This document shows, one piece after another, positions 19,019 to 24,614 of a stretch of DNA of 64,000 nucleotides. The stretch is from Terriglobia bacterium (GTDB lineage Bacteria > Acidobacteriota > Terriglobia > 20CM-2-55-15): contig CBDAOY010000005.1 of NCBI GenBank assembly GCA_965198225.1, positions 480,001 through 544,000 on the forward strand. Reading direction: 5' to 3'. How positions within the stretch are numbered: position 1 is the first letter of the stretch; each line of letters opens with the position of its first letter. The translations under genes were made by a program, and so were the position numbers. The notes under the pieces are model-generated. The model made no database searches. It saw nothing but the letters and a program-made list of their open reading frames with translations, and was not told the origin of the DNA.

Positions 19019-21304
19019 CTAAGGACGGTAACGGTTCAGGATTTCTTGGAATCGCGGATCGGAGCGAAAAGGATCAAAATGGACTTCATCGAAGAATGTG
19101 AAATCATCAAAACCGTCGGCCAAAGCCCCTTCTAGCTCGACAAGAGAGCGTTCCGTGTCTCCCAGGCCGGCATAGACGGCGCTCATTCGCACCTGCGCTG
19201 ACCCTGGGCGACCACCCAATTCGCGAGCTCTTTCGAACGGCCCCAGGGCCTGTTCGTAGTTGTCCAAAGCCAGGTGTGCTAGGCCGAGCCGAAACCAAGC
19301 GACGCCACGACCTGGTTCCAGTCTCAAAGCATGTTCGAACTCGGTTATGGCTTCCTCGTGGCGCTCCTGCTCGAAAAGCGCGCGGCCGAGCTGGTGATAC
19401 GCCTCGAAGTAATCCGGGTCATGCCGAATCGCGTTGCGCGCTGCCGTTTCCGCCGCCTCGAACTCATTCCCCCCGCTGCACGCCGCAGCGAGCTCGCACC
19501 AAGTGAACGCGTCGTCGGGGTTCAGACTTACGGCCCGCTCGTATTCATCGATGGAGCGTCCATAATCCCGTCTGCTGAAAAAGACTTGCCCCAGGACGAT
19601 GTACGCTTCCGAGAGCTCCGGGTCGAGAGCGAGGGCCTCGAGAGCAAACTCTTCCGCCCTCTGCAAACGTTCAGGGCTGCGGTCGTATCCGAAATAGCGA
19701 TATAACCACTCGGCGGCGCCCAGACCCGCCAAGGCCAGGGGATACCTGCTGTCCAACGCGAGAGCCTGTTCGAAATATTCCTGGGCAGCATCAATCCGCG
19801 CCTCAGGGAAGTCGAGAACAGTATGGGCCGACTGTACCAGTGACCAACCTCGAAGATATGTATCGTAGGCCTTGGAGTTTTCGGTATGGCGGACGCTGAC
19901 CCTCGCGGTTTCCTCGGGGCTCAATTGGAGATCCAAGGCCGCGGCGATCTCTAATGCCACCTCTTCCTGCAGACCGAACACATCGTCCAGCTCTCCCTCG
20001 AAATCGTCTGACCAGAGCTGGAAACTGGTTCCGGCGTCGATCAACTGCGCACTGACGCGGACGCGACCTCCAGCCCTGCGGACACTCCCCTCGACGACGT
20101 GCGTAAGACCGAGTTCCTCAGCAATTTCCGTAATGCTTCCGATCCTCTCCCTGAAGTGGGCCGCGGATCTCCGTGAAGCAACCTGGAGACCCTGGATTCG
20201 GGATAGCTTGCTGACGAGTTCTTCTGTCATCCCGTCGCTGAAATACTGGTTTTCAGGGTCGGCACTCAGGTTTTCGAACGGGAACACGGCTAAAGAAGGA
20301 GATTCCTCTGTTATCGGAGACAGCGAGACGTCTCCATCGAAGACAGCTGCGATCCTCTCCCGCAAGTTCCCGACGTCCCATACGAGTAGTGTTACCACCA
20401 GCAGGACGATCGCGACGCCGATCAGTTGTAGTCTCCAACGCAGTGGTCCCCCATCTCCAGAAACAGCCTCCGTTGCGCCCATGCGCCGGAAGTCGGCCAT
20501 AATCTCCCGAGCAGACTGATAACGATGTTCGCGGTTCTTTTCAAGGCACTTCAGGATGAGTTCTTCCAATCGCACCGGCAGATCTGTGTTGGTCCTGCTT
20601 GGGGGTGCTGGCGATCTGTGCACGATGTCGTCGGCCAATCGAGTAGAGATCGCTTCGGGGAACGGTCTGCGGCCGGTCGCCATCTCGTACAGAACGGCGC
20701 CCAATCCGTACAGGTCGGTACGTGGGTCTATCTCCTCCGCCCGCACTTGCTCCGGGGCCATGTAGGGAAGCGTGCCGGTCACTGCATCTGTTTCGGTTAA
20801 CAGGCTCCGCGTTTCGGCTTCTTCCCTTCTCGGCCCAGTCAGCTTAGCCAGGCCGAAGTCCAGGATTTTCGCCTCGCCGCGAGCTGTTACGAATATGTTC
20901 GCCGGCTTCAGATCGCGGTGGACGATGCCCTTATCGTGGGCAGCATCGAGAGCATCGGCCAGCTGAAGGCCCCACTCGACCACTTTTTCACTCGACAGTT
21001 TTCGGCCGGCGATGTGGTCCTTCAATGTCTGACCTTCAAGCAGCTCCATCACAAGGAACTGTCGGCCCTCGTGCTCGTCGATGTCGTGGATCGTACAGAT
21101 ATGAGGATGATTCAGCCCGGATGCGGCTCGGGCCTCACGCCGGAATCTCTCGATGGCTGTCGGGTCGCGTGAGAATTCTCCGGGGAGGAACTTGAGAGCA
21201 ACTTGCCGGCGAAGCTTGAGATCCTCGGCACGGTACACTTCCCCCATGCCGCCCTGTCCGATCTTCTCAAGGATCTTGTAGTGGCTGACGGTTTGGCCGA
21301 CCAT
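19019..21304 (-). CDS. Ser/Thr protein kinase with TM, TolB-like domain and TPR repeats
   Basis: MVGQTVSHY start; [17 protein letters not shown] and DFG; [11 protein letters not shown]; TPRs. Confidence 0.92.
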
Positions 21305-21463
21305 GGTCGCGCTCCCAATGAGTGGGTCGTCCGATGATAAACGACTGAAGGGCAGTAGACAAATCAACGAGTGTCTGCTCAGAAAATCTCCGCCTGTTAA
21401 GAAGGCGAAGCATCCAATACAAAACTTGCCCTTCAACGCCAATCTTAACTTCGCGTTCACTTG

Positions 21464-21713
21464 ATCGCGGTAGGGATGCCGGTCACCCGGCACCCCCCGC
21501 AGATCCGCACGTGCGGAACTACCGCATACGGCTCCTACCTCGGATGGTTGCGGCGATACAACGTGCCGCACACCGAACAACCCCTGGGACACGGACAACG
21601 CCCGCTCTGAGTCGGGACCGTGTGGAATTGGAACGATGTTCTCCTTGGTCCACGCCCTTCCCTCCCCAACCTCCGCCGAGTACTCATCCTCTTTGTTCGG
21701 CTGGTTCACAGGT
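21464..21713 (-). ncRNA. 3' half (D3-D6) of an ORF-less group II intron, host of the nested intron
   Basis: D3-like ACCTGTGAACCAGCCGAAC...GGAGGGAAGGG; D5 GAGCCGTATGCGGTAGTTCCGCACGTGCGGATC; D6 ending CCCTACCGCGAT. Confidence 0.8.
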
Positions 21714-23866
21714 GTAGAGTCGAAAGTGGTCGGGCTGGTCTGCCCTTCCACCGTCCGCTCAATCAAACGGCTCGTGCGGTTTTCCCGCAAGCCGCTTTCC
21801 TCAGTTGCTCCTCGCACGGAGTCACCGGTCCACGAGACCGGGAATCAGATGCGTCAGTCGGACCAGACCGAACTCTCGAATAAGTCGTCGCGTCGGATAA
21901 CGGCGCCACATCGTATTTCTCCACCGTTTCGCGAGAAACGAGTAGATACGGCGCTCAATCCAACGGTCCAGCTCGTTGAAGAGTCGGCGCACCCTCGCTT
22001 TGCGGTAATAGTTCCCCCAGCCCCGAATCACCGGGTTGAGCTGGTCGATGACTTCGCCCAGCTTCAGGGGAGCCTTACGGCGCGAGAGGTGTCGGATTTG
22101 CGTCCGGAACCTCTCGACCGACTTTTCCCGTGGAATGGCATACAGGTTATGGGGGTGCATTCCGCGACCACGCCTCTGTGTATCGGACAGACGCAGTCCT
22201 TTCCCTTGTTTCACCTTGTACCCCAAGAACTCAAAGCCTTGTCGAACGTGTACAATCCGCGTCTTCTTCGGATGAAGTCGAACTCCAAGTTCCTCCCAGA
22301 GAAACCGCTCTGCAAATGCGAGCGCCTGCCGGGCTTGGGCCGGTGTCCTACAAACCACCACAAAGTCGTCCGCCCAGCGTGTGAGTCTGTGACCTTGCCG
22401 GGTCATCGCACGGTCAAACGGCGTCAGAAAGATGTTCGACCACAACGGACTGGCCACTCCCCCTTGGGGAACTCCCGTCCGCGTGGGTTGCCAGCAACCT
22501 CCTTCCAATACCCCCGAACCCAGGATTGCCCGGATCAGCCCCAGAACTCGGCCGTCGCTGATCTCTTCGGCGATCAAGTCGAGAAGCTTCTCCTGGTCGA
22601 TCGTGTCAAAGAACTGCCGTAGGTCAGCATCAACCACCCAGAGGTCTCCGGCGCCTAGCTCTGCCCAGACTTTCCGCATCGCATCATGGGGTGAACGCCC
22701 CTTGCGATACCCGAATGAGCAGTCCAGAAACAACGGCTCGAAGATTGGTTCCATCCGCTGGACCAGCGCCTGCTGACAGACCCGATCCATTACGGCCGGT
22801 ATCCCCAGCTTTCGCATTCCTCCGTCGGACTTCCCGATCTCGACTCGCTTTACCGGCTTGGGTCGATAGGTGTCATCCCGCAGCTTTTGATGCAACAAGG
22901 CCAGATACTCCTCCTTGCGCCTTTCAAACTGCTCAATGGTCACTTCGTCGATGCCCGCGCTACCTCGGTTCCGTTTCACTTTCTCCCAGGCCAACTCCAG
23001 ATTCTTGCGACTAAACACCTTGTCGATCAGCGAGTGGACCTTTCGCTTCCTTCCCTGTCTGCTTTCCAATGTCGCTGTGTGGCGGCGGGCGGCGGCTTCA
23101 TCCGTACCGCGTTTGGGTCTTTCACTAAAGGAACTATCCAAGTTCACGATATCTCCGCGTTTCCCATCGCTCGCACATTCACAACTGAGTACGGGGACTT
23201 CCCCCTCCAGCGGGCCTTTTGAACCCACCAGCGCCGCTGCTCGAAGCAACGATCCGAAACCTTATGTTTGCCGTCTCGTTCCTGAGTACTATTCCCCGAT
23301 CCGATTCCTGGCACCGCGTCGGCCGGAATTTCGCTCTCGCTTATATCCGCACCTACCTTGCGGGGCTCTAGGTCGATGTTTGTCTTCTCGGTTGCCCGCC
23401 CTTTCGTCTGCGGGTGCCACATCATCTCGACCTTACCTTCCGCCCGGACGATACCAGGCCTCCCTGGGTCACTCGCGTCTCTTCCCCACCGTGTCGCCCG
23501 CACACACCTTGGTGCGATGGGGTGGAACCAATGCGCCTTCGCCCCCATAGTGCGGGCTCGACCATTCCCCATCTTTGGCCGACCGGTTCATCCTCGGGAT
23601 CGCTCCCGTCGATTACGACCCGGTGGTTCTCCTCATACCCTTCAGACCCCACCTCGCGGTGGGCGCCCTGCCCTCCAAAGTTTCCGTAGGTGGCTCCAGC
23701 TCTGCCTTGTCCGTGTCCGGCTTTCGCCTTCGTGCCCGTTTAGGCATTTGCCATACCTGCCTACACTCCGGCCAGTGAGGCATTACCCCCACTTGTTGGA
23801 TATCGACCCGTGGCCTCGGGCCGAGCGGGACTTTAACCCGCCGGAAACGCGTGCTGCCAGGCACGC
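21714..23866 (-). mobile_element. RT-encoding group II intron (inner)
   Basis: Probable 5' end GCGTG at 23866; D5 AAGCGGCTTGCGGGAAAACCGCACGAGCCGTTT; 3' end TTCGACTCTAC at 21714. Confidence 0.8.
21822..23147 (-). CDS. ltrA: Group II intron reverse transcriptase/maturase, no endonuclease domain
   Basis: [45 protein letters not shown] and domain X RGWGNYY; GTG start with GGAG RBS. Confidence 0.93.
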
Positions 23867-24324
23867 ATTACGGGTTCGTCCGCCCCCGCGCTGCGCTTCG
23901 GTACTCAGACCTTGAGAGGGCTTCTCTTGGCCGTCTCCCTTGACATCGCAGTCGCAGGTTCCTGCAGTTCCGCACAAGAGCCCGGACCGAACTCGCGCCA
24001 TCTCTATGCCGGACACCGCCCACCCAGTAAACAGGTTTCCGATGGGCTCATCCCGGGGCAACATCACCTCCCCGGTTCTGATGTCGTCTAAGGCACTTTC
24101 GACACTTGAATGATGGTTCACTGGTGTTCGCCTTCTCGATCCATACCTGACGCGTTTATCACGCCTTTTCCCTGACGCTCACGACGACGGATCGCCGCTC
24201 AGGGCGGTTTGAGATCAGCCCCTGCAGGCCGACCCCGGAGGGCCATAATCCTCCATCTCTCGCGCAGCTTCTCACGCCCGGGTTAACTCATTCTGAGCCT
24301 CCCTTTTGCGCTGCTGCAGCACAC
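23867..24324 (-). ncRNA. 5' half (D1-D2) of a group II intron interrupted by the inner intron
   Basis: Begins GTGTG at 24324; contains GGAAC..GGAACC and ends GAGTACCGAAGCGCAGCGCGGGGGCGGACGAACCCGTAAT at the start of D3. Confidence 0.7.
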
Positions 24325-24614
24325 TGATATCGGCTGCCCACTTCGATTGCTCAGGCCGCGGTCTGCCTGAATGCCGTGCTTCACGTCTCTCCGAATTGGC
24401 CGGTTTTCAAGTGCCACTGAGGAGATTTCCCCCCTGTACCAGAAAGCCTCTCCTAGGGGTTTGAGCCGCAACGGTGTGAAAAATTACTCTAAGGGTCCGT
24501 GTGTGACCATCCTGGAGTAACTCCCGGCACCGCTTCCGCTGCTATAAAGCACCCGTTCTTCGGGACTTGGACCTCGGAAACGACTGCCACAGTCATGGCC
24601 AAAAGGTATAGATT

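Follow-up and report, generated by a model that had tools for sequence, protein, structure and literature searches.

How does a mobile group II intron come to reside within the ribozyme of another group II intron, and is this location a consequence of its target recognition? This question is raised by a locus in a 64,000-nucleotide (nt) stretch of DNA from a Terriglobia bacterium (assembly GCA_965198225.1, contig CBDAOY010000005.1, positions 480,001–544,000; hereafter the window), in which an intron encoding a reverse transcriptase (RT) extends from 23866 to 21714 within group II ribozyme sequence (about 24275 to 21464) that itself lacks an open reading frame (ORF). All coordinates without a contig name are positions in the window, and the inner intron as well as both parts of its host are encoded on the minus strand. 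The inner intron very probably represents a lineage of group II introns homing into domain III (D3) of other group II introns. This reading builds on the observed boundaries, a common target motif, complementarity and covariation of exon-binding site 1 (EBS1), the comparison of filled with empty sites and the distribution of flanks. The following features define the locus:

21714–23866, minus strand: inner group II intron, full length, 2153 nt, with termini common to 20 5' and 21 3' junctions.
23867–24275, minus strand: 5' part of the host intron, comprising D1, D2, the D2–D3 junction (J2/3) and the 5' strand of D3, from the RF01999 match and alignment.
21464–21713, minus strand: 3' part of a host intron, comprising the 3' half of D3, a short ORF-less D4, D5 and D6, from a second RF00029 match.
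21714–21799, minus strand: D5–D6 of the inner intron (RF00029, 37.0 bits, model positions 1–77, E 3e-4).
21822–23147, minus strand: gene of the intron-encoded protein (IEP), about 441 amino acids from GTG at 23147, with RT and maturase domains and the active site WADD.

The Rfam matches on both sides, together with the RT/maturase ORF, identify the arrangement as an RT intron nested in an ORF-less ribozyme. Upstream of the inner intron, the D1 region of the host strongly matches RF01999 (group-II-D1D4-2; 86.7 bits, 24145–24254), the host 5' end near 24275 (GUGAG) being set by alignment only. Downstream, the second D5–D6 match (RF00029, 36.4 bits) occupies 21464–21536. Ribozyme sequence on both sides, as well as the flanks themselves (...GAACCCGTAAT before and ACCTGTGAACC after the intron), had been recognized in a sequence-only reading of the locus and was borne out. 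On the minus strand, the inner intron begins with GCGTGCC at 23866 and ends with CTCTAC at 21714. The same termini recur in the 20 5' junctions and in 20 of the 21 3' junctions of the source genome, while the remaining 3' end deviates only upstream of the last 17 bases. The 5' boundary is unambiguous, because uninterrupted and interrupted versions of a target within the intron itself (see below) could be compared.

Recognition of the insertion site involves three short elements:

23541–23557, minus strand: EBS1 hairpin with stem GCCC/GGGC and 9-nt loop GCACUAUGG, at the tip of a D1 arm (RNAalifold).
23867–23872, minus strand: intron-binding site 1 (IBS1) of the window copy, CGUAAU, pairing with EBS1 at five of six positions.
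21713, minus strand: first 3'-exon base A, the presumed IBS3; an A follows all 21 own-genome 3' junctions.

The sequence-only reading had proposed the hairpin GCCC-GCACTATGG-GGGC at 23541–23557, displaying ACTATG at 23546–23551, as EBS1, and folding agrees with this position. In the RNAalifold consensus the ACUAUG loop caps a long, multi-helix distal D1 arm, ten pairs of which show compensatory changes. Eleven aligned members of the clade share the hairpin in the form GCC(C/U)-GCACUAUGG-(G/A)GGC; its closing pair varies (UA:6, CG:3, UG:1) and its loop is invariant in ten of them, the exception being L058, in which a single loop base not belonging to the ACUAU core differs. A conserved target leaves the loop no room to covary inside the clade. 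Covariation was, however, found in a sister intron of a related family (about 78 % identical in D1), the 5' exon of which ends ...GGGACTTTGG and the homologous loop of which reads GCCCAAAGA. Here, the six positions of ACUAUG are taken by CCAAAG, which can pair throughout with the intron's own exon end CUUUGG; this assigns EBS1 to 23546–23551 and IBS1 to the six bases. The ideal IBS1 predicted from this assignment is CAUAGU, and the D3 loop has this same sequence in the Rfam consensus. In the window copy, CGTAAT pairs with ACUAUG save for one A-C mismatch at position -2, the single mismatch having already been noted from the sequence. Since homologous host introns read CCCGTAGT or CCCGUAGU, the simplest reading is that this mismatch probably reflects a G-to-A change after insertion.

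The 6.4-Mb source assembly contains two full-length inner-intron copies (one in the window, the other at contig C6, 343788–345941), a 5'-truncated one and at least ten ORF-less ones. Their insertion sites are strikingly uniform: 18 of the 20 5' junctions are preceded by NRTAGT (GATAGT in eight cases, AATAGT in four, CATAGT in three, CGTAGT in two and AGTAGT in one), at a chance expectation of 1 in 256 for a given tetramer. The two others are the window copy, located after CGTAAT, and a rearranged copy after unrelated sequence. Among the 18 NRTAGT junctions, 13 lie in D3 of at least six other intron families, four in D3 of the intron itself and one in a gene. Taking all 20 together, 14 insertions are in D3 of foreign introns, four in the own D3, one in a protein gene and one in rearranged sequence. 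The upstream contexts of the foreign D3 sites fall into host types termed here Y (six sites), Y' (two), Z (two), and W, W', V and U (one each). Joining the flanks of the filled U site and searching the genome with them revealed seven empty copies of this host family identical to the filled one at 80 of 80 flank bases, so insertion was precise and without target duplication. V-like hosts are likewise represented by three uninterrupted copies (95.5 % identity).

Structurally, the target is the same internal loop in hosts of different type. According to the Rfam D1–D4 models, the host 5' parts belong to RF02005 (Y, V and W'), RF01999 (Y' and the window site W) and RF02001 (U and Z), with RF02003 found beside a 5'-truncated copy. 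Host D5–D6 matches are present downstream at most own-genome sites, with none found for Z. RF01998 matches the region that includes the insertion site in one uninterrupted U copy, where the site follows the D2 hairpin and precedes the RT ORF. The RF01998 consensus (...gGcCAUAGUAgccgcc...ggcggcGAAGGgC) describes a hairpin followed by a linker with ...AGAAgUCAG... and then by a stem, in whose internal loop CAUAGUA faces GAAG; insertion separates the U from the last A of the 5' loop strand. We take this stem to be D3, given the standard model and its location behind D2 and J2/3 but ahead of the ORF. Reconstituted Y, W', V, U and Y' sites fold alike, with a basal stem of 4–7 bp and variable sequence, the loop AUAGUA or GUAGUA, a distal stem and a GAAG-type 3' loop, and two sites from foreign genomes fold in the same way. 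The bases upstream of IBS1 accordingly form one strand of the D3 basal stem, the partner of which lies downstream of the site. The host sites thus belong to the RF01998 stem, ahead of the RT ORF of the host, and not to the sequence encoding the RT catalytic motif.

The same motif is present in the intron itself, the major forms of which differ by a single deletion:

23192–23298, minus strand: own D3 of the inner intron, basal stem CGGGGA/UCCCCG, 5' loop AUAGUA and 3' loop GGAAG, from folding (z-score only -1.38).
21821–23071, minus strand: segment absent from the ORF-less derivatives (intron positions 796–2046; shared break 795/2047).

At 23293–23286 the own D3 reads AATAGT followed by AC, placing the self-target between 23288 and 23287. 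The sequence-only reading had regarded this D3 as slightly off-target; in fact, AAUAGU followed by A is used at six own-genome loci. There, the own D3 is occupied at intron position 579/580, yielding three complete twintrons and three forms with one half lost, which are to be expected from recombination between nested repeats. Six remoter clade members (L049, L054, L056, L058, L061 and L069) lack AUAGUA in their own D3 (alignment A1, columns 590–610) and L063 reads AUAUUA, so that among the aligned members the self-target is kept only in the subclade containing the window copy.

ORF-less forms account for most copies and share the identical break 795/2047 in every case; the joined form also occurs in contigs of all four sequencing runs examined. 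Two ORF-less copies are identical to each other, and the two full-length copies, both with an open frame of 479 codons, differ at 15 positions (99.3 % identical DNA). Together, these identities suggest recent activity of the family.

Beyond the source genome, RT relatives of 53–90 % identity were recovered from 35 loci in named assemblies. They originate from Terriglobia, Desulfobacterales, other delta- and gammaproteobacterial metagenome-assembled genomes (MAGs), Desulforhopalus, Neomarinimicrobiota, Nitrospinota and Ignavibacteriaceae. The 5' end was located at 20 of these loci (18 with a readable flank, one with 4 nt of flank and one with none). The others are 5'-truncated, cut by contig ends or part of a group with about 41 % RT identity (Verrucomicrobia and similar), which was excluded from the flank counts and gave no match to the ribozyme profile. 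All 18 readable junctions (15 distinct contexts) follow [AG]TAGT, and most of these flanks carry a J2/3-like ...GUCAG(A/C)... or ...GCGGA... about 12 nt upstream. Among the loci scanned with Rfam, nine of 11 contain a foreign D1–D4 match (RF02005, RF02001 or RF01999) 60–400 nt upstream and seven of 11 a second D5–D6 downstream; a second RT ORF follows on the same strand in six of 14 loci scanned. The flanks of homologues hence agree with the proposed target within the genome (14 of 20) as well as in other phyla (18 of 18), and the same D3 bias recurs independently in at least eight other genomes.

Matches were obtained in eight of 59 related genomes and in none of three genomes of the same genus; three same-family genomes hold 97–98 % identical copies. 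Scanning metagenome contigs with a flank-free pattern of the intron 5' region yielded five further loci, three of which have a D3-type ...CGTAGT flank. The other two (L106 and L110) have different flanks and have diverged so far that EBS1 could not be located.

The two flanks of the window copy do not appear to belong together. Upstream, the host resembles the Y' family (66 % over 441 nt; Y' 5' end GUGCG), for which the native 3' half of D3 in a related genome starts with AGCGATGAAG... and forms pairs with the 5' strand of the same D3. A 1617-nt contig of sequencing run X1 is 95 % identical to this upstream flank and continues past the insertion point with native Y'-type D3 sequence, without the inner intron. 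Downstream, the flank resembles a 3' half at contig C8, 902508 (190 of 266 positions identical), which pairs there without mismatch with a 5' half of the RF02005 type in a D3 basal stem of 7 bp (C8, 903484). The D3 basal stem obtained by joining the two halves of the window host pairs poorly. The window flanks probably derive from two different host introns, i.e., from a recombinant host. Similarly, Y' 5' halves are joined to Y 3' halves at two other loci, and a gammaproteobacterial MAG contains two different 5' halves on the same 3' half. Recombination between inner copies residing in different hosts would explain all of these mismatched halves. Runs X16 and X17 (metatranscriptomes labelled sponge metagenome) yielded contigs with the ORF-less form over the window section 21400–24400, one of which has U-type sequence upstream and Y-type sequence downstream.

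Several observations weigh against the lineage as a D3-homing element or against the window copy as its representative. First, both D5–D6 matches in the window (37.0 and 36.4 bits) are below the Rfam cut-off of 40 bits for RF00029; the relatives' own D5–D6 score 38–41 bits against this model. Second, the name domain III is given by position and from the standard model, Rfam labelling the region as D1–D4 only. Third, a search for IBS2/EBS2 pairing gave none, nor was EBS2 itself located; among about 24 distinct contexts, positions -7 to -13 vary. Among conserved bases sought at -7 to -20 of the targets, only the host's own J2/3-like CAGA/CGGA recurs; UCUGA of the intron was considered as EBS2 and rejected, as it belongs to the general RF02001 consensus. 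Fourth, empty copies are lacking among the six Y-type hosts, every one of which is filled, and part of the copies may therefore have been carried along by the spread of their hosts. Fifth, one own-genome copy is inserted antisense in a gene with a MASE9 domain, and five of nine junctions of the 97–98 % identical family in the three related genomes have no intron match within 1.5 kb upstream. Sixth, the window copy may splice poorly in view of its IBS1 mismatch and probably chimeric host, and no 23867–21713 join was found in contigs of two metatranscriptome and two other runs, although contigs cannot show absence.

One alternative is that the lineage does target D3 but the window copy is a dead relic, no longer splicing or moving in a host that is a non-functional chimera. 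The mismatch at position -2, the poorly pairing basal stem of the host D3 and the X1 homologue continuing with a different, uninterrupted D3 all speak for this possibility. It is nevertheless unlikely on balance, given that the ORF is intact, the DNA is 99.3 % identical to the second full copy, five of the six IBS1 pairs are retained and the near-identical ORF-less copies imply a working protein source in the genome.

Another alternative, which concerns the lineage as a whole, is that only a short motif of about 7 nt (NRUAGU plus A) is recognized, the concentration in D3 arising as a by-product from the survival of insertions at harmless sites and from copying together with mobile hosts. The missing IBS2 conservation and the completely filled Y hosts would fit this explanation, as would a related genome (G027) with few other introns. 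It holds six full-length copies, one of which (from the matching named assembly) is in a Z-type D3, and it accounts for all five non-intron junctions, located at CGTAGT-type or CATAGC sites. These insertions show that six-base pairing plus the A suffices for occasional insertion elsewhere. The sequence-only reading of a hyperparasite homing into a shared ribozyme motif stands with respect to the flanks and the EBS1 covariation, but the specificity of the intron is not absolute. Yet the own genome offers 1672 free NRTAGTA sites, of which about 20 are recognized as intron D3, whereas D3 accounts for 17 of the 18 NRTAGT sites that are occupied; this contrast indicates that something beyond the 7-mer favours D3. 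With a single ectopic insertion against at least eight distinct D3 contexts, with intergenic and antisense sites that should be equally harmless, and with a bias recurring in the other genomes, the by-product explanation is rather improbable. Candidate causes of the bias may be presentation of the loop by two flanking helices in RNA or single-stranded DNA, counter-selection elsewhere or hitch-hiking with mobile hosts.

That the nesting merely reflects assembly artefacts or repeat recombination instead of site-specific insertion is scarcely credible, since, despite the existence of recombinants (mismatched-half hosts, twintrons without one half) and the MAG origin of part of the genomes, exact junctions recur in at least ten separate assemblies plus metagenome contigs, filled and empty sites agree at 80 of 80 bases, and contigs of independent runs carry the same junctions.

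Homing into D3 thus remains the preferred reading, from which the following mechanism can be proposed. The element would be an active or recently active mobile group II intron without endonuclease. Its EBS1, ACUAUG, is complementary to CAUAGU in the 5' half of the D3 internal loop (AUAGUA opposite GAAG) found in many bacterial introns. The excised intron RNA, together with its RT/maturase, would reverse-splice after the U of the motif, next to the A, and then be copied into DNA, with priming presumably occurring at replication forks. As a component of the ribozyme, the motif would turn any intron family that keeps it into a homing site, allowing the lineage to live as a hyperparasite across structural classes and bacterial phyla. 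Since the own D3 retains the motif in this subclade, copies also invade each other and build nested arrays. The internally deleted, ORF-less derivative has multiplied, presumably in trans, on protein supplied by the few full-length copies. The inner intron would have to splice before D3 of the host can fold. Recombination between dispersed copies would join halves of different hosts, seemingly also at the window locus.

A further-reaching version of D3 homing is advanced tentatively. It views the endonuclease-less, cross-phylum clade as a hyperparasite specialized on a D3 loop that hosts cannot change without harm to their ribozyme, with recognition extending beyond the six base pairs of EBS1, e.g., to the loop displayed between helices in single-stranded DNA or host RNA. 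Distant members might have lost their own motif and thereby avoid self-invasion, whereas the present subclade kept it and nests, with recombination shuffling the host halves.

At its 5' end, the inner intron deviates from its relatives:

23862–23866, minus strand: non-canonical 5' end GCGUG, where relatives have GUGYG.

All own-genome copies begin with GCGUG and hence depart from the GUGYG pattern, with which relatives of 53–77 % RT identity begin. A local hairpin is possible between intron positions 1–6 and 13–18 (window 23849–23866; alignment A1, columns 1–18). In 11 aligned introns, the pairs 2-17 (C-G here, U-A in relatives) and 4-15 (U-A or C-G) covary, so the unusual 5' end appears compensated. 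The bulged branch A, as read off the sequence, is located 7 nt from the intron 3' end, and an Rfam scan of the window gave a weak match to RF02001 at 23556–23663.

The ORF at 21822–23249 contains RT and maturase domains (Pfam RVT_1, 2.8e-33; GIIM, 1.5e-19), but the IEP has no endonuclease domain. Translation likely starts at GTG 23147, behind GGAG, because relatives align from residue 34–38 onward. The RT catalytic motif WADD (22360–22375) is shared with four relatives (L042, L045, L046 and L063), while FADD or YADD is found in remoter D3-homing relatives. Among solved structures, the closest are those of class C (IIC) RTs (7uim, E 5e-65; 6ar1, E 1e-62), the class placement being that of the nearest solved RTs only. 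About 50 nt past the 3' end of the host intron, a gene for a Ser/Thr protein kinase with TPR repeats (19019–21414) starts on the same strand; the long ORF call for it runs spuriously into the intron.

The genome as a whole is unusually rich in group II introns, with 31 GIIM matches and 32 D5–D6 matches belonging to several families. Within the Y host family, 16 nt without a GUGYG separate the start of the RF02005 match from D6 of another RT intron that precedes it (L031, 3700–3830, corresponding to C6, 839700–839830), an arrangement found at four loci. This preceding RT intron may perhaps be nested in D1 of the host, giving three or four nesting levels. Directly ahead of one U copy, which starts with GUGCG, are a tRNA gene and a hairpin that resembles a terminator and has a run of T at its end (L033, 531–660, corresponding to C7, 488330–488460), which resembles the habit of class C introns.

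Homing of introns into other introns is known. The introns M.a.I5, UA.I3, P.l.I2 and B.th.I3 have the catalytic motif of the RT in other retroelements as their homing site (Tourasse and Kolsto 2008, PMC2504315). Like the present lineage, they are described as endonuclease-less, have distant hosts, use a conserved motif inside other group II introns with site conservation confined to IBS motifs, and form twintrons and nested arrays. Their target, however, is the DNA encoding the YADD motif in the RT ORF of domain IV, whereas the target described here is a ribozyme motif in D3 upstream of the ORF and is therefore also available in ORF-less introns and in introns with unrelated RTs.

Twintrons are also known from Thermosynechococcus elongatus, where ORF-less derivatives, such as the TeI3 family, are mobilized in trans (Mohr et al. 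2010, PMC2882425). Proliferation within one genome, ORF-less forms originating from a single deletion, and the use of other mobile introns as safe sites are shared with the present case. In T. elongatus, insertion is into domain IV of one related intron family, at a site flanked by its first and second ATG; here it is into D3 of hosts of at least three Rfam D1–D4 types and, in addition, into the intron itself.

Class C introns resemble the present lineage in their short IEP without endonuclease domain and in their RTs. No IBS2 pairing was found here, recognition apparently depending on a short IBS1 plus the first 3'-exon base. Insertion sites of class C introns directly follow DNA hairpins, e.g., terminators or attC (PMC4424553), whereas the IBS1 considered here lies inside an internal loop between two helices and not 3' of a complete stem-loop. 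The long D1, with an EBS1 arm weakly matching RF02001, also sets the intron apart from this class.

Insertion into the ribozyme part of another bacterial group II intron, and not into its ORF, is known from a Trichodesmium twintron, which represents a single locus with insertion in domain I and for which sequential splicing has been shown (Pfreundt and Hess 2015, PMC4649490). Unlike here, no lineage-wide target motif was described in that study. Other cases comprise domain IV twintrons in Porphyridium plastids, nested arrays in Methanosarcina and LAGLIDADG ORFs in D3. No group II lineage homing into D3 was encountered in the full-text literature searched. Within this literature, the new aspect is a lineage homing into a D3 ribozyme motif, intron-into-intron homing as such being already known.

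Previously known intron-into-intron homing concerns protein-coding or domain IV sites within related families. If the D3-homing reading is true, the present lineage would in contrast be a parasite of the intron class as such, able to enter introns that lack an ORF as well as those of at least three structural types in many phyla. It would then provide a natural system for understanding how very short EBS1 pairing gives high site selectivity. For annotation, finders expecting an intact D3 will miss the host introns. For intron-rich bacterial genomes, the lineage would represent a route to nested arrays and chimeric ribozymes.

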